This document shows, one piece after another, positions 5,396 to 58,930 of a DNA stretch of 64,000 bases. Within the stretch, counting starts at the first letter, position 1; each line of letters starts with the position of its first letter. This DNA is from Ginglymostoma cirratum (taxonomy: Eukaryota), in NCBI GenBank assembly GCA_024137785.1, contig JAHRHZ010000250.1, forward strand, positions 788,515 to 852,514, given 5' to 3'. The notes beneath the pieces are model-generated. The model saw only the letters and a list, made by a program, of their open reading frames with translations. It was not told the DNA's origin and ran no database searches. The position numbers and the translations under genes were made by a program.

Positions 5396-6319
5396 GAAAA
5401 TTCTGAAAGGCAAAGACAACAGGCTGCATGCAGTTCTTTTTGTCACTTTGATATATTACTGATCCGACATTGCCTGTCTGAGTAATTGTATCAATGCATT
5501 TTTATATTATGATCAAAGTTTAAAATTTCCAGAAGTGAATGTTTAAAATTATTATTATAAAATTTGAAACAGAGGTTTTGCAATTCCTACGTTTCAATTG
5601 CATGATGAAGGAACCTCTATGAAAAAGTTTTCCAAAATGTGAACTGATTATCGTTAAAAATTCAAAACGGAAACATTTTACTGTATTGAAGGATTTCATG
5701 GAATATTCTGTAGATTGTAATACATTCAGGAAACTACAGTCTGTGTTCATGCATTGCCATTTTGGATATATGTCAATAACACAAGAGTAGATACAATTTA
5801 TATCAGGCATTTTCATACGACCGGAATGGTTTGAAAATTTTCATGGCAATGTATTTTTCATTAAATTCATAGACATTCGTTCTCCATCAATTGCTTCCTA
5901 TTTAAAAAATAAAAAACTGTTTAATTTTTAACGTTGGTTCCATCGTTCTGGATACTTTAACGTTTTTAAAAATGAAAAAAAAATTCCGGTTTATTTGCAA
6001 GAAGTTTTCATGACTGTTAACAAAAGAGTCAGTCACAGGAAAGAGTGGAGTCAAATGATGGTGAATATTACAACTCCCCATGTTTTATGTGTCTATTTTG
6101 ACCGGGTTCCAGCTACCAATTTATTCCATATCCGGATATGTAACAAGAAATCAATGGGACGAATTGAATTGTTATGCTTACAACGCCTGTGGACAGCTCT
6201 GTGGTCACCTTTGCGGAAGTTTACAAATGTGTAAGGTGTCAGCCAGTGATGACCGCTCACTCAGCCAGATATCTGAGCCACGCATGAACATTGTGCAAAG
6301 AAATGTACGAAATATACTG

Positions 6320-6555
6320 AGATAAGAAGGTGTAGAGCTGGATGAACGCAGCAGGCCAAGTAGCATCAGAGGAGCAAGAAAGCTGATGTTTAGGGCCTGG
6401 ACCCTTCTTCAGAAGATCCTTTTTCTAAAGAAGAGTCGAAGCCCGAAACGTCAGCTTTCCTGCTCCTCTGATGCTGCTTGACCTGCTACGTTCATCCAGC
6501 TCTACACCTTGTTATCTCAGATTCTCCAGCATCTGCAGTTCCTACTATTCCTCTA
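6320..6555. mobile_element. Inverted pair of Penelope terminal repeats with hammerhead-like motifs
   Basis: 6320-6413 is the reverse complement of about 6423-6518; same family at 47690-47785 and 49805-49925. Confidence 0.8.
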
Positions 6556-9715: not shown

Positions 9716-11696
9716 TTTTTTTTAAAGTATCTCCTTACAATCTGCTCGGCACTTGTCCCTCAATCTCTCTCTAAAAGAAACCAGGGCGAAACCCATCACT
9801 TAAAGCCATAGACTCATCACAACAGCAAATGAAACATGAATCGCTTGTGATATTTGTCCCATCTGGAAGCATACCGTCCGTTTCTTACGTTCTGAAGCAA
9901 ACGTAAAAGGAAGGCATTTATATGTCCACATTTCCAAAGTCACAGGCGAAGAGAAAACGACTGCAATCAGCATGCTGCATTTCTGCTATCTGTCAATTTG
10001 GCTACCGAATCCCCCCAGTGTCATGGTAACTCAAATAAACCCTCTCCAGGACAAACACATCATAATTTCCTCCGGGTAATGTGGCCCAGATCAAGAATTG
10101 AAACTCCAGAAGAGAGCCCCGACATGACAATGTGAGTCAGACCCCTTGTTTGAGAATATTTGCTTATGTTAAGTAGTCGCTAAATGATTGATATCAAATG
10201 GTCTGATACTTTTGGTATGTTATCTACGATATATAAGCAAAGTATTAGTAAATCAAACTTGTACTTTTAAACTCGATGTATTAGTTAATAATTAGTTGTG
10301 AATGTCAAAAAGCATGTTTTCTTCGCAAAGAGGGGAGTATTGGAAATTAATATCACTTTAAAACTGCATTTTAGTAGTATTTAGAATGAGGCATGAGATT
10401 CAATTTAACTGCTGTTGCAACAGAAATTAACACATGAAATCAAAAAAAAAAAGGCACAATGATCATAACAGTTATTGAGGTCCGGATGCCTGATTTGCCG
10501 CTGTAGGTATCATATTATCAATGTATCAAAAGGTAAAATAATTTACTGTAGATAAATGAATGATAAACTCCTCTTTAGTGGGAGCAGACTGGTGACAATG
10601 GTCATCCCAGCATCATAAGTAGCTGTCTATGTCATTGACTTAAAGTTTTCAGATTAGTGATTGGCATAATACAGATTTCCAGTTCATAAAATATAACATA
10701 TTGAGAGATGTAGGAAGAAAGTGACCGTGAGAGAGGGAGACGTTACAGGGACAGGAGACAACACCTTCTTTGGTTCAGACCAAAGATTTGAGGGAAGAAT
10801 AAAGAATGTTCCCATCACAGCTTCACCAACGATTGTGAAATATCAGGGATGAACACACCAGCACTCTAAATCATAATGGTTTCCAGGCACCTCATGTCCA
10901 TTCTACAGAAAAGTCTCCAAGTATTTACAACGTTCTTGTCTATTAGGGGTTGTATATTTTCTTTTCTTCCTCGAATTAAGTTATATATCGAATCTAAAAT
11001 GCTGCTTCACGATTAACACCATAAACCATTTGAAAATTGCACGGAAATGGTAGAGTGGATACATTAGACATCTACCCTACCAAGCGCCAAATGGGCACCA
11101 TCATCACAAATTTCATAGTTGAGAGTTGCAATGAAATTTAGTAATGATAACAAACTTTATTGTCTTGTGACTTCAGATTGATGTCATATGTTTTCTTCTT
11201 GTCCATTTTCTCCTCATAAGTTTGATTCTAAATGGAGAAAAAAAGTGCTTGAGCAAATTCACAATCTAACAAGAGAAATTGTTTTCTTCACAGCCAAAAA
11301 GATGTAGGGGCGCCCAATATTGAAAAACAGCACAAAGATGCATTGAGAATCGATACCGCCTCATCACGGATTCGTTTTTCAACACTTCACAGATCTTTGA
11401 ATGAGATTGATTTAATCAAACCAGCGTGGATGAAAGTCTTTAAGTAATAACATTGACGGTCCTTAAATAATTTCGTCTGGATACAAGATAATTTATTACT
11501 AAATTGCACTATCGTTAATTATCAATGGTGAATTGCAAACAATTGAAGTTCGTTGAATAAAAAATGCAAAAATTGGGAATATGAGACAGCGCAAGACGGG
11601 ATTTTAATTGTGCACCATTAAATACAAGATTCCTTGGTATTGTAACTCCCTGAGAGCAGTTTTGCTTTAAGAAATGCCTGGTGCAATTATGGGTAA

Positions 11697-11754
11697 GGAC
11701 TCTTTGTGTCGCTGTCTACCAATAGGAAAACCATACACTGCAAGAGATCTACCC
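11697..11754 (+). promoter_or_regulatory. Protocadherin promoter CSE (CGCT box + CCAAT, putative CTCF site) plus downstream GAGATCTACCC motif
   Basis: GGACTCTTTGTGTCGCTGTCTACCAATAG with CGCT at 11710, 271 bp upstream of the ATG; aligns without gaps to 42033-42090. Confidence 0.85.
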
Positions 11755-11980
11755 AGCTTCCTCCTTTAATACGAAACACGGCGCAGAATCAAAGAACAGG
11801 GCAAAGTCGCCCGCACCTAAACCATCTTGCGCTGAAAGGTCAGTTCGAGATTTCACGTTTATAGTTTTAATGTCGGTTTTATTTTCATCAGAACATGTAT
11901 TTCATTTCATTGAGAGCAAGATAAGCCGAAGAGATAAGACGGCATTTTGGCAGATTTGCAAGTGGGTCTAATCCGGAACA

Positions 11981-14362
11981 ATGGCGAAAAGCCTCAGGCG
12001 GCTGTTCTATTTTGTGTTACTGACTTGCGTCTCGGATTTAATTTGCGGTCGACTACAATACGTGATTCCCGAAGAAATGGAGCGCGGTGCTTTTGTTGGG
12101 AATATCGCGGAAGATCTAGGCCTAAGCATTGGAGAGATGTCATTTCGCAAATTTCGGCTCGTCTCTGACGACGGAAAGCAATTATTGAAGGTGAACATGG
12201 AGAATGGTATTATAGTTGTGAACGAGAGAATTGACAGGGAAATTCTGTGTGGAAAAACAGCGACTTGTTTTGTTTCTCAAGATGTAGCGGTAGAACATCC
12301 ATTGGAAATGTACCATGTCGACGTGGAAATATTGGATGTAAATGATAATTCGCCCAGATTTCTCGAATTGAGATACACTTTACAAATATCTGAGTTAACT
12401 GGAGCAGGAGCTCTTTTCCCACTCGAGAGTGCGCACGATGCGGATGTGGGTACAAATGCAGTGAATAGTTATGAAATCAGCACAAACAAGCACTTTGGTT
12501 TGAAGACTCACACCAGAAGCGATGGAAGTAAAATTGCAGAGTTGCTGTTAGAAAACTCCCTAGACCGTGAGCAAGACTCAACTTTTCACCTGACGCTGAC
12601 GGCCATTGACGGTGGGATTCCTCGAAAATCTGGTACTGCAGAAATAGTCATCACTGTACTAGACGTAAACGATAATGCCCCAGTATTTGATCATCAGTTG
12701 TACAGGGTTAATGCATTAGAGAGCTTACCTAAAGGCAGCTTGATCATAACGTTAAATGCTGTTGATTTAGACCAGGGAACAAATGGCGAAGTAAAGTACT
12801 ATTTAACCAGCCACGTTTCTCACAGGGTAAGGGAGTTGTTCAGTTTAGACTCCGAAAGTGGACATATCAGAGTTCAAGGGTCACTGGACTATGAAGCGGA
12901 GAAGGTTTACCAACTTGGAATACAAGCTGTGGACGATGGCACGCCCGCAATGATTGGACGCACCGAAGTTCTTGTTGAATTAATTGACATTAACGATAAC
13001 GCGCCAGAGTTAAAAATAAGTTCGCTATCCATTGAAGTACGCGAAGATGTCACAAGTGGGACTGTGATCGCTATAATAACCGCAATCGATCGTGACTCCG
13101 GCGAAAATGGACAAGTGCAATGTCAGTTGCAACCAAATATTCCTTTTAAACTTCAAAGATCTTCAAACAAACAATACAGTTTAGTGGTCAGCGATACGCT
13201 GAATCGCGAAATCTCGCCTTTCTATAACATCTTCATTTCAGCCTGGGATGCAGGGTTACCCCCTCTTTCTACGAATAAAACTATCCACATTTCGGTTTCT
13301 GATATAAACGACAATGCACCACAATTTACACAGTCGTTATATCATGTGTTCTTGATGGAAAACAATGCAGCTGGTACATCAATATTAGCCGTTACCGCTT
13401 TAGATCCTGATTTGGGCAAGAATAGCGAGATATCGTATTTCTTATTGAGCAGTTTCATGCATAAAACTGGCGACTTTCGAGTTGGCTCCGAAAGTGGGCA
13501 CATTTACGCGCTCCGCTCTTTTGATTACGAAATACAGAAGAATTTTCAGTTAAACGTTCTGGCTCAGGATAGTGGAACTCCCTCACTGACCAGCACTACT
13601 CTCGTGAGTATTGTTATTTTGGACCAAAATGACAATATGCCAGTCATAGTATCACCTTCAAACGACAACAGTCGGTTTGTGATTGTACCAAAGTCTGCAA
13701 GTCCAGGATACTTGGTGACCAAAGTCGTTGCTACTGACGCAGATTCCGGACAGAATGCAAGACTTTCCTATCAGCTCATAGAAGCTACTGATCACAGCGT
13801 GTTTAGCGTGGGATTTACCTCTGGCGAAATTAGAACAATTCGAAAATTTAAGGAAAAAGATGCTCTTAGACAGATTATTGTAGTTTCGGTCAGTGACAAT
13901 GGACAGCCGAGTCTCTCCAGTACAGTCTCAATTCAGATTACAGTCCAAGAAAACGTTACTGAAAATACCTTTGAACAAAAAGCCAATACTAGAAATCCAG
14001 AATTATTTTCAGATTTAAATTTTCTGTTGATCATAATTTTTGGATTAACTTCCTGCATATTTCTATTAATAATATTTCTTCTGATCATTGTGAAATTCAA
14101 ACAAGACCGGAATATTTGCTGTTGCATGTCCAGGATCTGTTACTACGGACAAAGAAATTCAACCGATGCCCCTCAAAGTACAGCAGTTCCAACAGCAAAT
14201 TTAAATTATCTAGATTCTCTTCAAACTCTGCCTATTCGGGAATCATATAATTACACAGTTTGCCTCTCACCGGAATCCTCTAAGAGCGATTTTTTGTTTT
14301 TAAAACCGTGTCACCCGAAGTTGCCTCCGGATGATATTAATATCCGTGACGTCGAGGGTTAA
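11981..14362 (+). CDS. Clustered protocadherin variable exon (793 aa ORF): signal peptide, EC1-EC6, TM, cytoplasmic tail with a PCDH10/gamma-C-like motif
   Basis: Repeated cadherin motifs (IDRE, DVNDNSP, LDRE, DVNDNAP, LDYE, DINDNAP, FDYE, DADSGQNA), C-X5-C in EC1 (CGKTATC), hydrophobic TM (FLLIIIFGLTSCIFLLIIFLLII), tail YNYTVCLSPESSKSDFLFLKP. The true 3' end may be a splice donor rather than this stop. Confidence 0.96.
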   Translation: MAKSLRRLFYFVLLTCVSDLICGRLQYVIPEEMERGAFVGNIAEDLGLSIGEMSFRKFRLVSDDGKQLLKVNMENGIIVVNERIDREILCGKTATCFVSQDVAVEHPLEMYHVDVEILDVNDNSPRFLELRYTLQISELTGAGALFPLESAHDADVGTNAVNSYEISTNKHFGLKTHTRSDGSKIAELLLENSLDREQDSTFHLTLTAIDGGIPRKSGTAEIVITVLDVNDNAPVFDHQLYRVNALESLPKGSLIITLNAVDLDQGTNGEVKYYLTSHVSHRVRELFSLDSESGHIRVQGSLDYEAEKVYQLGIQAVDDGTPAMIGRTEVLVELIDINDNAPELKISSLSIEVREDVTSGTVIAIITAIDRDSGENGQVQCQLQPNIPFKLQRSSNKQYSLVVSDTLNREISPFYNIFISAWDAGLPPLSTNKTIHISVSDINDNAPQFTQSLYHVFLMENNAAGTSILAVTALDPDLGKNSEISYFLLSSFMHKTGDFRVGSESGHIYALRSFDYEIQKNFQLNVLAQDSGTPSLTSTTLVSIVILDQNDNMPVIVSPSNDNSRFVIVPKSASPGYLVTKVVATDADSGQNARLSYQLIEATDHSVFSVGFTSGEIRTIRKFKEKDALRQIIVVSVSDNGQPSLSSTVSIQITVQENVTENTFEQKANTRNPELFSDLNFLLIIIFGLTSCIFLLIIFLLIIVKFKQDRNICCCMSRICYYGQRNSTDAPQSTAVPTANLNYLDSLQTLPIRESYNYTVCLSPESSKSDFLFLKPCHPKLPPDDINIRDVEG

Positions 14363-39640: not shown

Positions 39641-42032
39641 TCAATGCATGGTGCATTTTTTAACTGATTCTTATTTGTTCATTTTTACATACTCTGTCAA
39701 ATAAGGCTTTGACGCTAACGGTACTCACTCTGAACTCACTTCTGACATTCGGCTCTTTTCTTTCTGTTTGTATAAAGTTATCCATAATAAAGAGGTCAGC
39801 GGCGTTGCAAGCCCACTGCAAACTAAACTGAATTCCAATGTGCATTCGTAACAGTGCAACTGTTGCTACAAAGAATTGACTTATACCTGCTTCCTAGCAT
39901 TGCAGCTGATCGACAGCGGCCTCGCTCTCTCCTGTTTTGTTTGCAGTCAGGACATAGCTGGTAAACTTTGCTCACTGCGCAATTTGAACTGCGCACTTAC
40001 CATGATATTCTAATGCTTATCGTGCCGTCAAGTCCTGACGTGAATTCGAATCTGTCGACCAGCAGACGAGCGTAATGATGGCAAAACCGCGACATTTTTT
40101 GTCACCATGCACTCACAATGCACCCAATAATGTGTCATTTTACTTAATTAAAGTGCTGTCTTTTGAAATAGACCTATCTAAATCGGATATGTTACAGCCT
40201 CGCCTTTGAATTTTTCACTCAATATCCTCCTCACACTTTGGATAGTATTCCAGTCCTGTTTCCATGGGAACATTTACTCTCCAGTGCCCTTTCCTCCTGC
40301 GCATAGTGCACAATATTCAAACTCCCGCACATGTGATATTGATAATGCTTCTCACTCGCAGGAAAACGTTCACCCCTCGTTTTCCGAAATTGCCAGCTCT
40401 TCTTCCTTCGCTGACAATGTTTTTCGCCTCCCACGAAGATGACCGCTCATCTCCCTTCACTCCCCGCGCGCCTGCAGCAGGTCACCACGAAAAATGTAAC
40501 TTTTCCCTAATATCTGCGACCTTCCCTATCCAACCCGCATCACTGTTGTCATTTTTGATATTAGTGTTCAAGAATTAAGAATTCTGGAATGTATGTCATA
40601 GGGGTGGGCGGTGGGGAAGAAGGGTGGTGGAGCTGGTGGGGAAGGGTGCACTGTGGTAAATTTTGTCGGGGAGGGATCGATCAATCTCTGGAGAGGTGAC
40701 TGACGAGAGAGGCGTGAATGCTGTCCGGGGGAGTACATTGTTGGAGAGGGGGGTGACAAATGTGCTATCGCTTGGAACCATCGCACCTCAGCTGATGTAT
40801 TTCGCTTTGTACTCCTTATAGGCTTCACGTCCACCAAAGAAACTCAAATTTAATCCTTGTGTTAAAACAAAATACGAATAATTATCAGAGGAACAGACTT
40901 CTTGGATATAGCTGTCTAATTGTTTAGCCCCTTGAAGAATCAGGTAGTAGTCGGGTCGTGCGCAATCATCAACAGAATGTGAAAACGGTTCGCATGAGTA
41001 CGCGCATGTGTATGGTGGAACTCCTTCTGCAATTAAAGGCCCATGGGCGACATTTGAGTCATTTGCCGAATAGCACTTATAAGGACTTTTATTGGACACT
41101 ACTCTTGAATGTGGTTTCAGTTTTAATGAAACGTCGCAGAAGTTGGACTTGTGCTCCTAACGGCAGATGCGGGAACGGGAAAACCTACAAGAAATAGTTG
41201 AGATTATATGCTGTTTTTATTGGGCAAGTGGAAACAGATGTTTTCTATCGAGTGGTGATTTAACCAAAGCCAGCTTTTTTTTGAAATTGCCAAATAGCAC
41301 ATAGGTAATGCAGGTTCTCCAGCCGTTGGAATTTCCGATCCTGAACACATTACCTTGACGACTGATGAAATCAATTTGTATAGGAACTGTTATAGGCAAT
41401 TCATCATACATTTAACTGGACGATTTTATAAGCCTATTGAGGAATAGGGCTTGGGAATCAACTGGACAGTTTTTTAGGCGTGGCACATTAACACGCAGCC
41501 AAATGGCCACTTTTTGTACCTTTAAAATCTGTTTCATTAATTAACCCTTTTAATTTGGATTGCGAATGTACTATTCTCCTCTGCAGATATCAAGGAATAA
41601 AGCAATCACAAAGTGAAATTCGCTGACAAATTGGAAATCAGGAAAACAATGTTAAAATTTGAGGGTAAAACATATTGAAACTACATTGTATACCGTGTTT
41701 CGGAAAATGCCATTGAGAACATTTAACTGATTTTTTTCTGGTCATCATCATGGTACATTTCAATCTTAAAAGCACATAGCGTCAGAAAGAAAATGTTATT
41801 GATGGAAAGTATTTGACAGTCACACACGTTTATGAGGTTGAAGACACGTGAATTGGGGACAAGGGATAAATGTTAGTCACGATTTTTAAAAGTTTTTTTA
41901 AAAGAAACAAATGAATGTATTAGCTGTATTATAATTTCTTTTTCGTAAGTAGATGCTATTTGTGTTGTACAAGGTAAATTAGAAATTATCCGTGGCCTGA
42001 AACAGCCTCGCTTTAAGTGCTTGAATTGGGTT

Positions 42033-42090
42033 GGACTCTGCGTGACGCTTTCTACCAATAGAAAGCACGGTTGTTCCGAGAGATCTACCC
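42033..42090 (+). promoter_or_regulatory. Protocadherin promoter CSE (CGCT box + CCAAT) plus downstream GAGATCTACCC motif
   Basis: GGACTCTGCGTGACGCTTTCTACCAATAG with CGCT at 42046, 266 bp upstream of the ATG; matches the first promoter. Confidence 0.85.
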
Positions 42091-42311
42091 CTCCTTCGCC
42101 TGTCATCGGACTCGAACAAGAAGACAAAGAACCTCTGCAGCTAAGTATTGCGGCATTGTTCTTCAAGGCGGAGGTTTAATATTCACGTTTATTTTCAATT
42201 TTAACATCGCTATTTGCAGTTATCGTGGCTTCTCGGAAGAAATAACTGAGCGCAAACGGCTCAAGACAAATCCTTGTTCAGTATTCACATCGACTTTAGC
42301 AACAAAATAAC

Positions 42312-44828
42312 ATGACAGAGGAGCAGAGCATTAGCGCAACATCGCGCACTCTGCTTAATTTAATTCGCTTATTCCTCGTGACTGATGTTTTTGGACAAAT
42401 TCAATATTCAGTTCCCGAGGAACTAGAGCATGGAGCTTTCGTGGGGAACATTGCTGAAGATTTAAATTTAAATATCAGGAGACTGATTGCTCGGAAATTT
42501 CGTCTCGTCACTGATGGCACGAATAAATACTTCGATGTAAACTTCCGAAACGGGATTTTATTTGTGAATGAAATAATTGACAGAGAGCAAATCTGTGGAC
42601 ATATTTCAACCTGCGTAATTTCATTTGAAGTCGTGATGGAAAACCCATTGGAAATATACAGTGTTGACGTGGAACTAAGAGATATAAATGATAATTCACC
42701 TACTTTTGCAAAGGGCAAGATTTTCGTTGAAATCGCTGAATCATTTGCTCCAGGAGCGCGCTTTCCTCTGGAGGGCGCACATGATTTGGACGTAGGCACC
42801 AATTCTGTCAACGCCTACCGGATCAGTTCAAATGAATACTTCGGTCTCAACACACAGACACGAAGTGACAGCAGTATAATTGTTGAGTTGTTATTGGAGA
42901 AGTCCTTGGACCGAGAAAAGGAATCGTCATTTCATCTTGTACTGACGGCGATGGACGCTGGGATTCCGGAGCGATCGGGTACAGCCGAAGTAATAGTTAC
43001 AGTTCTGGATGCAAATGACAACGCGCCTGTGTTCGAACACGAAAAATATGAAGTCAGCCTATTCGAGAATGTCTCGAAAGGCTTTCTGGTCATCCAGCTC
43101 AAAGCGAATGATGCAGATGAAGGGACGAATGCTGAGGTACAATACTTTTTCAATACACATACTTCTCAAAGAGTGCGACAGCTGTTCAGGCTGAACGCAC
43201 AAAGTGGAGAAATTGAAGTTCAAGGTGTTCTAGACTTTGAAGATTCAATTGTTTACGAAATTGAAGTACAAGCCACGGATAAAGGCATCTTAGCACTGGC
43301 GGGACACACTCAAGTCCGGGTCACATTAATTGATGTCAATGACAACGCTCCCGAAGTTAAAGTGATCTCAGTATCCAACGCAATCCCCGAAAATGCGACA
43401 TTAGGTACTACAATAGCTTTAATTAGTGTAACGGACAGAGATACTGGAGACAATGGGAGAACTGATTGTCAAGTGCTTAGGAACATTCCTTTTAAACTCC
43501 ATGAATCTCTAAAGAACCAGTATAAGTTAATTACCAGTGGCATACTAGATCGCGAAATGGTTCCTTTGTACAACGTGACCATCGTAGCCTGGGACACTGG
43601 GACTCCACGTCTTTACACAAATAAAACTATTGTGGTGCCCGTAACAGATATAAATGATAATGCGCCAAGATTTACGCAATCTTTATATGCTGTATATGTG
43701 AAGGAGAACATTGCTCGGGGTTCTTCATTTTTTACAGTTACGGCTTTTGATCCTGATTTTGGAGAAAATTCGCGTGTATCCTATTCTATTCTGGGTAACC
43801 AGTACGAAGACGTTTCAGTTCCGAATTATATTGATATTAATTCCAACGATGGCAATATCTATGCGCTACGTTCTTTTGACTATGAAGAAACAAAAAGCTT
43901 TCAAGTTCGCGTGCAAGCAACGGATAACGGAATCCCTAAATTGAGTAGCAGCACTACTGTTACTGTGACTATTCTTGATGAAAATGACAATGCTCCCGTA
44001 ATTATTTCTCCTTTAGTGAGAAATGGTTCAGCTACATTGCGAAAGGTACCTCAGTCAGCATTTCCGGGATATTTAATTGCCAAGGTAGTCGCGTCTGATG
44101 CGGATTCTGGCCAGAATGCAAGACTTTCCTTTCAATTACTTGGAGCTACTGACACTGGCCTAGTCAGCTTAGGGTTTCACTCTGGGGAAATCAAGCTAGC
44201 ACGGGCACTTACTGATAAAGATCTCACTATGCAACGTCTGAATGTCCTCGTGAAGGATAATGGAGAGCCAAGCCTTTCGAACAGGGTCTCCCTTTACTTT
44301 TCAATAATGAGCAGCGCGAATGAAACATTCGTTGAATCTCGTGACTTGCTCAAGAAAACCGAATACTTCTCAGATTTTAACTTGTATTTAATAATTATTC
44401 TGGGGACAATTTCCTTAATATTTTTTGTGACAATTATCGTCCTTTTTGTCGTTAAATTGCGTCAAGGTACAAATGTTCGTGGTTACAATTCTGGCTTTTG
44501 TTGTGCGCGTTCAAATTCTCTGGATACTTGTAATCAGAGACAGATTCCAGGAGAATATCTGAACTATCTTGGAGATAATCAGACAATCTCCGTTCGTGAT
44601 CGCCAGCACTACAGGATGTATTTATCCGCAAGTTCGCCGGGGACTGACTTTTTCTTCATGAAACCTTTCGATGCAACTTTGCCCTGCAGTGAAGTGAAGG
44701 ATAATACTATAAACAACTCGACAGAGCAACCTAAGGAAACAATTGCGTTGAACGATAAGTATTGCAAAAGGGAACAGTTAAATATATGTGGCCAAGATTG
44801 TCTCAAATGTGAGTTCAGTTCTCAATAG
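42312..44828 (+). CDS. Clustered protocadherin variable exon (838 aa ORF): signal peptide, EC1-EC6, TM, cytoplasmic tail
   Basis: GQIQYSVPEE...GAFVGNIAEDL start of EC1, IDREQICGHISTC, six cadherin repeats with DxNDNxP linkers, TM LYLIIILGTISLIFFVTIIVLFVV, tail TDFFFMKP. Paralog of the 11981 ORF. Confidence 0.96.
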   Translation: MTEEQSISATSRTLLNLIRLFLVTDVFGQIQYSVPEELEHGAFVGNIAEDLNLNIRRLIARKFRLVTDGTNKYFDVNFRNGILFVNEIIDREQICGHISTCVISFEVVMENPLEIYSVDVELRDINDNSPTFAKGKIFVEIAESFAPGARFPLEGAHDLDVGTNSVNAYRISSNEYFGLNTQTRSDSSIIVELLLEKSLDREKESSFHLVLTAMDAGIPERSGTAEVIVTVLDANDNAPVFEHEKYEVSLFENVSKGFLVIQLKANDADEGTNAEVQYFFNTHTSQRVRQLFRLNAQSGEIEVQGVLDFEDSIVYEIEVQATDKGILALAGHTQVRVTLIDVNDNAPEVKVISVSNAIPENATLGTTIALISVTDRDTGDNGRTDCQVLRNIPFKLHESLKNQYKLITSGILDREMVPLYNVTIVAWDTGTPRLYTNKTIVVPVTDINDNAPRFTQSLYAVYVKENIARGSSFFTVTAFDPDFGENSRVSYSILGNQYEDVSVPNYIDINSNDGNIYALRSFDYEETKSFQVRVQATDNGIPKLSSSTTVTVTILDENDNAPVIISPLVRNGSATLRKVPQSAFPGYLIAKVVASDADSGQNARLSFQLLGATDTGLVSLGFHSGEIKLARALTDKDLTMQRLNVLVKDNGEPSLSNRVSLYFSIMSSANETFVESRDLLKKTEYFSDFNLYLIIILGTISLIFFVTIIVLFVVKLRQGTNVRGYNSGFCCARSNSLDTCNQRQIPGEYLNYLGDNQTISVRDRQHYRMYLSASSPGTDFFFMKPFDATLPCSEVKDNTINNSTEQPKETIALNDKYCKREQLNICGQDCLKCEFSSQ

Positions 44829-58497: not shown

Positions 58498-58930
58498 CCC
58501 AGAACAATGATTACAGTAATTACTATGATGGACTTAGCTTCAGAAGGCAGTGAACGAACCATTTGCCATATTCCTATTCGCCTTCCATTTTGACTGAGAT
58601 GCAATTATAAAGCTTTCTACACCTTATTGACTAGCGATATGCTAGACCAAGAAACCATGTCTAAATATTACATTGGCATTTCATGCAAACACATTGGGTT
58701 CCCTCCTCATTTCACGAACAAGACCATAGAATTTCATGTGACAGACTTTATTGTCAACCCGTTACATTTTTGCAAACTTCTTACAGGAGTTATGTTGTAG
58801 AAAACAACATTGCTGAAACTTTTTTTCGGTAATTGCACTTGACTCATACTTAGACAAAAACTCCAAAATTTTCTTCTCTACATTGGACAGTCGGCCTGGG
58901 GACGTTTCGGTTTTATCATACGTTTCCAGG
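58498..58930 (+). pseudogene. Decayed protocadherin variable exon B, EC4 to start of EC5
   Basis: TMITVITMMDLASEGSERTICHIPIRLPF*LRCNYKAFYTLLTSDMLDQETMSKYYIGISCKHIGFPPHFTNKTIEFHVTD...QTSYRSYVVENN...VIALDSYLDKNSKI; collinear with EC4/EC5 of the intact ORFs; TGA at 58591. Confidence 0.9.

Follow-up and report, generated by a model that had tools for sequence, protein, structure and literature searches.

Work on promoter choice among the clustered protocadherins centres on CTCF, yet several isoforms are CSE-less; the available text of PMC7811963 names alpha-c2, beta1, gamma-c4 and gamma-c5 for mammals. According to the available portions of PMC7811963 and PMC3333863, the mammalian CSE has, like the shark promoters described here, a CGCT box 200–300 nt before each variable-exon ATG, and the CSE and SSE likewise have neighbouring elements whose spacing is critical. 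A CGCT element has already been reported for the elephant shark cluster (PMC2926608, available text), and the CSE-less promoters of Xenopus tropicalis pcdh-gamma2 15–36 carry an uncharacterised 13-bp motif (PMC4978886, available text). Among general promoter factors, NF-Y is often found at paired CCAAT boxes and at sharply preferred distances from partner sites (PMC4889920), and it maintains open promoters (bioRxiv 10.1101/369389), as far as the accessible parts of these sources go.

Two protocadherin promoters in the window

The window, i.e. the whole 64-kb stretch of Ginglymostoma cirratum DNA analysed (G000:C250:788515-852514; genome of 4.36 Gb), holds two clustered protocadherin variable exons on the + strand, with ORFs of 793 aa (11981..14362) and 838 aa (42312..44828). 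Both are single large exons encoding a signal peptide, cadherin repeats and a transmembrane segment, arranged in a tandem same-strand array. The closest full-length proteins are carpet-shark protocadherins (whale shark 83%, zebra shark 78%), and the first window gene groups with elephant shark epsilon proteins in a tree, on which its label "epsilon-like" rests. The two ORFs share 50% protein identity and 37% of 172 four-fold sites.

An ungapped alignment of the two promoters runs from a CSE-like core through to an identical 11-mer, GAGATCTACCC, found 18 nt past TCTACCAATAG in both cases and 5' of a long protocadherin ORF, and this part of the original prediction holds in both promoters. The copies at 11744..11754 and 42080..42090 (both +; GATC cores at 11746-11749, 22 nt past CCAAT, and 42082-42085) are the sole exact ones in the 64-kb window. 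Allowing up to two mismatches gave 14 matches in the window where 10.0 were expected, and the exact pair alone is therefore conspicuous. The CSE-like cores (11696..11714 and 42032..42050, +) contain CGCT boxes at 11710-11713 and 42046-42049, 271 and 266 nt before the respective ATG; the core has a mammalian-type CGCT box 200–300 nt before the ATG, and this box is conserved among the 5'-group paralogues. Each core is followed by a CCAAT box, at 11716..11726 (+, CCAAT 11719-11723; a likely NF-Y site and the spacing anchor) and 42052..42062 (+, CCAAT 42055-42059), and by an 18-nt spacer (11726..11743 and 42062..42079, +) of fixed length and moderately conserved sequence among paralogues. Beyond the 11-mer lies a pyrimidine/C-rich tract (11755..11765 and 42091..42100, +; +36 to +45 in the column profile, counted from CCAAT).

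The predicted upstream block GCTTTAAG, the upstream part of the shared scaffold, is present in both promoters (11664..11671 and 42010..42017, +) but out of register, with CTTTAA 54 nt before CCAAT in promoter 1 and 44 nt in promoter 2, where it lies 10 nt nearer. Promoter 2 also has an inverted CCAAT box (ATTGG on the + strand; 42025..42029, -) 25 nt ahead of the forward CCAAT, degenerate in promoter 1 as ATGGG (11689-11693). A TGCAATT at 11682..11688 (+) in promoter 1, part of a TGCAG-like block upstream of the shark core, resembles the upstream CTCF module.

Decayed protocadherin exon fragments were seen at 32849-33714 and 58504-58924 (36–42% to intact ORFs), and no promoter module was found 5' of either. 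The window further holds inverted repeat pairs at 6317-6520 (86%/204 nt) and 506-1112 (68%/626 nt), with the appearance of oppositely oriented SINE-like copies.

CCAAT-N22-GATC is a selected, cluster-specific element

Searching the genome with the first 140 aa yielded at least 59 matches; at least 50 of them lay on the + strand of C250, from 17 kb to 1.44 Mb, and at least nine on other contigs. The cluster loci were numbered L001–L050 in order (window genes L020 and L021), and L051–L059 are non-clustered controls. Of the 50 cluster loci, 41 carry an ORF of 650 aa or more and nine are broken.

The pattern CCAAT-N22-GATC occurs in 37 of the 50 cluster loci, four of them broken, and in 35 of the 48 loci outside the window; the paralogue promoters thus neither generally lack the motif nor vary its spacing. 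Among 85 CCAATs in these 48 held-out loci, 35 have GATC at 22 nt and every other distance occurs at most twice, and shuffled upstream regions gave a mean of 0.19 loci with the pattern (maximum 2 in 200 shuffles). None of the nine non-clustered protocadherin loci has it. The 11-mer proposed as the motif is exact in the window pair, but at the expected position just 5 of 50 cluster loci have it exactly and 12 of 50 within two mismatches; the conserved unit is the near-invariant GATC, not the full 11-mer. The hexamers around it in the 37 module-bearing loci are AGATCT (12), AGATCC (7), GGATCC (7), AGATCG (4), GGATCT (3) and others (4), and 29 of the 37 fit the mostly palindromic RGATCY.

The exact pattern is absent from 8 of the 41 intact exons (L001, L002, L019, L024, L027, L028, L031 and L040). 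L001 and L027 are without the module and L002 has only a degenerate CCAAT-N22-GATG; L028 has N23, L024 no GATC, L031 AATC and L040 CAAAT. The spacer of L019 is 9 nt shorter (N13), with the 11-mer and ORF intact (L019:749-775, C250 ~775.9 kb); this locus is a recent paralogue of the first window gene and a natural spacing mutant. L001, L002 and L027 are isolated exons that group with non-clustered-like or basal protocadherins, possibly single-gene subclusters or C-type equivalents. Constant exons were looked for in 50 kb of a region (L141) that begins within the last three exons, and one weak gamma-constant-like match (E 0.002) turned up.

The spacing is tied to CCAAT and not to the CSE, as 14 intact 3'-group genes without CGCT keep GATC in place. 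Of the 22 5'-group promoters, 21 have CGCT at -9, as against none of the 14 in the 3' group (L035–L050), all of which have GATC at +27. The ATTGG-CCAAT gap in L045–L049 is 15, 23 or 24 nt at a constant CCAAT-GATC distance of 22, and in L035, L037, L042–L044 and L050 the core keeps its 25-nt length with diverged sequence. The 3' group also retains GCTTTAAG, the inverted CCAAT (ATTGG) and the C-tract. The scaffold order reads GCTTTAAG, inverted CCAAT, variable core, CCAAT, 22 nt, GATC and C-rich tract. Within the 37 module-bearing loci, CTTTAA lies 5' of CCAAT in 32 (at 53–54 nt in 26) and 23–24 nt ahead of RTTGG in 19 of 21, and the RTTGG-CCAAT gap is 25 nt in 19 of the 25 loci with such a site. 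Given these spacings and the constant CCAAT-GATC distance, the scaffold appears to consist of two rigid units, one pairing GCTTTAAG with ATTGG and the other CCAAT with GATC, on either side of the CSE-like core.

Further conserved features are TG[CT]A[AG]T at -37, seen in 17 of the 37 module-bearing loci and in no 3'-group promoter, A columns in the spacer at +14 and +16, and a pyrimidine tract 3' of GATC in both groups of the column profile. In the flanks of CCAAT, 33 of 36 promoters have A at -1, 34 have A at +6 and 32 have G at +7; the pentamer columns themselves were the alignment anchor and their invariance is partly by construction. CpG observed/expected ratios of 0.45–1.22 mark CpG-rich proximal promoters. 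The contiguous 3' block L034–L050 (G000:C250:1.296-1.441 Mb), without CGCT, has more canonical CCAAT boxes on both strands, and many of its promoters have a GCCCC tract at +37 that half-matches the reverse CTCF core.

Column statistics were computed for 36 of the 50 loci (22 in 5' groups and 14 in the 3' group), leaving out the nine broken loci, L001, L002 and L027 for their missing or degenerate module, and L019 and L028 for their shifted spacing, a selection that favours conservation somewhat. On the protein tree, the GATC columns of these 36 promoters require 2, 1, 1 and 1 changes, compared to a mean of 11.6 at 21 four-fold sites. Between the groups (308 pairs), identity is 0.31 at four-fold sites, 0.84 in the CCAAT region, 0.43 in the spacer, 0.77 in the block at +25..+31 and 0.19 in the ACCC tail at +32..+35. 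The predicted 18 divergent nucleotides proved exact in length but not free in sequence, with pairwise identities of 0.43–0.60 across the cluster versus 0.27–0.31 in the flanks; the far flanks were compared ungapped, so the latter values are a floor and the four-fold sites are the fair control. The outcome is the same for the 220 divergent pairs among the 231 of the 5' groups and for every one of the 308 between-group pairs. The original prediction of a second, exactly spaced motif is borne out in 37 of 50 loci, and the motif is selected, with one or two changes per GATC column; CCAAT-N22-GATC is a real, selected and cluster-specific promoter element.

A general shark promoter element was considered and rejected, as the genome-wide composites sit in a context unlike that of the protocadherin promoters. 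A relaxed pattern gave 55 matches genome-wide, 21 in the cluster and 34 elsewhere, and a reversed control 17. On the columns that the pattern leaves free, these 34 and one further match scored -44.3 to +1.5 and the 36 training promoters, inflated by training, 0.5 to 33.0; 34 of the 35 non-cluster matches had a CpG observed/expected ratio below 0.5. Six loci (L146, L154, L155, L159, L163 and L175) are copies of one repeat family with CCAAT-N22-GATC, in a CpG-poor context and with a spacer unlike that of the protocadherins.

Teleost promoters

Metagenome contigs were scanned in a protein-driven and motif-blind manner, and the best 80 of 507 loci were considered. Among these 80, a clear teleost clustered-protocadherin-like start with upstream DNA was present in L061, L062, L064 and the second ORF of L090. 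The remaining loci were mostly distant cadherins, and L060 (45% to a protocadherin) was without the module. One of the four teleost promoters, L062, carries the module. This gene is 93% identical to a percomorph protein named gamma-C5-like and does not group with any shark group in the N-terminal tree. Its promoter reads ATTGG, 21 nt, CCAATAG, 18 nt, GAGATCTACTC and a C-tract, ~270 nt before the ATG, matching the shark 11-mer at 10 of its 11 positions and having no CGCT at the CSE position. The spacer differs from that of the shark and both end motifs stay. Over 1,067,022 positions in the best 80 of 507 loci, L062 scored 25.2 bits on the shark matrix and the runner-up 7.2.

The module is absent from the other three teleost promoters: CTCF-like cores stand in L061 and L090, and in L064 there is a CCAAT but no GATC. 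The CSE-like cores of L061 and L090 have CACT in place of CGCT, and L061 matches 12 of 14 positions of a CTCF core consensus, better than any shark promoter. The teleost sequences are unannotated host contigs, perhaps from one or two fish, and one positive in four shows presence in a teleost, not frequency. Since a teleost promoter, L062, has the module, it is probably not chondrichthyan-specific and probably predates the split between sharks and bony fish. The original prediction had left the choice between a chondrichthyan-specific and an ancestral component; this one teleost promoter argues against the former and favours the latter.

Candidate readers of the element and comparison with described systems

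We consider it reasonably probable, judging from motif and spacing, that GATC serves a partner factor as its binding site, at a constant distance from NF-Y, in a scaffold common to most variable exons. NF-Y would bind one or both CCAAT boxes and keep the promoter open. A partner reading the mostly palindromic RGATCY, for which a GATA-type zinc finger is one candidate, would sit at a fixed distance, 22 nt downstream of NF-Y's CCAAT; SP/KLF-type factors may read the C-tract, and transcription would begin some tens of nucleotides beyond it. The CSE-like core between the CCAAT boxes of the 5' groups would then be an optional layer for CTCF-dependent choice. In these groups the inverted CCAAT falls inside the presumed CTCF footprint, and competition between NF-Y and CTCF is thus possible; the available text of PMC4889920 reports low overlap of CTCF and NF-Y peaks in ENCODE lines and cites good overlap in neuronally differentiated ES cells. 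The 5'-group CCAAT flanks, TCTACCAATAAG, fit the NF-Y consensus less well than the 3'-group flanks. The box-to-box distance of 30 nt is outside the human double-CCAAT peaks at 19, 24–28, 35–37 and 43, for which the available text of PMC4889920 gives no orientation of the sites.

GATC might instead, though this seems improbable, be a core-promoter element fixed to the start site and read by the general machinery, the pyrimidine tract acting as initiator; the constant distance to CCAAT would then arise because NF-Y sets the start site, and not from protein-protein contact. NF-Y controls start-site fidelity according to the available text of bioRxiv 10.1101/369389. The pyrimidine tract lies 3' of GATC in both groups, and no TATA-like column is seen 3' of CCAAT in the column profile. 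Weakly against this account, contig 5' ends, which cannot show a transcription start, lie 68–99 nt past CCAAT and ~40–70 nt past GATC in four of nine promoter-by-run cells; in the others contigs begin at +3, +279 and +327, and two run through the promoter. NF-Y CCAAT boxes typically lie ~60–100 nt upstream of start sites. The raw RNA reads on a window gene (3 in X7, 0 in X8) are uninformative either way, as are those of L140, in which no position was found where many molecules begin. A high-depth X2 contig over the L049 exon (L140:4506) starts with 24 letters that match no locus in the set and that could be an upstream exon or an artefact.

Somewhat less probable still is a single multi-zinc-finger protein with a long footprint that reads CCAAT, spacer and GATC together, NF-Y being uninvolved. 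A partly conserved spacer would also be expected from one long footprint, and the spacer is indeed rigid in length, above background in identity (0.43–0.60) and marked by the conserved A at +14 and +16. Such a protein is harder to reconcile with the teleost promoter, where the spacer differs and the end motifs stay, and with the second, inverted CCAAT upstream in most promoters; NRSE/REST matches are at background, and only 3 of 37 loci have GGACAG after GATC. The REST half-site was tried as a candidate and rejected, as TYAGMRCCNNGGMSAG (consensus from the available text of PMC2926608) matched at best 8–11 of 14 specified positions, at no common position.

That GATC belongs to an extended CSE/CTCF site, as the original prediction of a CSE extended by the motif implied, we regard as very unlikely. 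CGCT does stand at a fixed position relative to GATC in 20 of the 37 module-bearing loci, but the spacing follows CCAAT, a box left unnamed in the original prediction, GATC is kept without CGCT in 14 of 14 3'-group promoters and in teleost L062, and L061 and L090 have a CTCF-like core without GATC. In addition, the SSE is upstream of the CSE and gene-specific in the available literature, in contrast to the downstream and common GATC. The CGCT-less promoters have already largely refuted this reading. Against a 14-position CTCF core consensus, the best matches of the shark promoters between -60 and +70 were 8–11, and those of far-upstream controls likewise 8–11. No second CSE-like site was found in the exons, where the best downstream score was at most 3.9 bits compared to 22–50 at promoter sites, using a promoter matrix that would miss a dissimilar CTCF site.

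Identity left over from a recent duplication or gene conversion, or chance, has next to no probability as the source of the 11-mer and is refuted for GATC by the tree and identity statistics. Some pairs of paralogues did diverge recently, with four-fold identity as high as 0.95, and the tail is clade-biased (0.19 between groups at +32..+35); duplication may account for ACCC. However, the window genes share only 37% of four-fold sites at 50% protein identity, GATC is conserved far above four-fold sites in 220 divergent pairs out of the 231 in the 5' groups as well as in the 308 between-group pairs, and a teleost also carries the module.

A wider version of the NF-Y reading is offered tentatively, as a possibility we would not bet on: CCAAT-N22-GATC, bound by NF-Y and a GATC factor, may be an ancestral jawed-vertebrate core that is older and more general than the CSE and drives the CSE-less promoters, with CTCF choice layered on top. 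If so, this core would drive the shark 3' subcluster, the teleost and frog gamma-C-like genes and possibly mammalian gamma-C4/C5, and CTCF-dependent stochastic choice would be a layer added to it, through a CTCF site that overlaps the inverted CCAAT. From its distribution, CCAAT-N22-GATC is likely an old shared on-switch of protocadherin promoters. As a promoter motif, this rigid two-word element, common to CSE-bearing and CSE-less promoters in a shark and a teleost, is a concrete target for footprinting, mutagenesis and pull-down, and can be tested in zebrafish or Xenopus.

No literature description of a CCAAT/NF-Y plus GATC module in protocadherin promoters was found, although the alignments of Wu 2001 and Yu 2008 may show the positions. 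The composite modules of NF-Y in the available text of PMC4889920 are double CCAAT boxes and CCAAT with an E-box, RFX or ZNF143 site at fixed distance. The shark scaffold resembles them in its paired CCAAT boxes, a partner at a sharp distance, a GC/C-rich tract and CpG-rich promoters; it differs in that no GATC partner is listed there and in that the shark composite is confined to the protocadherin cluster. The Xenopus 13-bp motif, which sits ~200 bp upstream of the start codon in a contiguous block that lacks the CSE and is related to gamma-C4/C5 (PMC4978886, available text), is likened here by position and CSE-less context, not by letters; as in that block, the teleost carrier L062 is gamma-C5-like and without CGCT. 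For the mammalian CSE, the accessible portions of PMC7811963 and PMC3333863 mention neither CCAAT/NF-Y nor GATC. Compared to the mammalian CSE and SSE as described there, the shark GATC is found 3' of the CSE, is shared among paralogues, is spaced from CCAAT and outlives the loss of CGCT.
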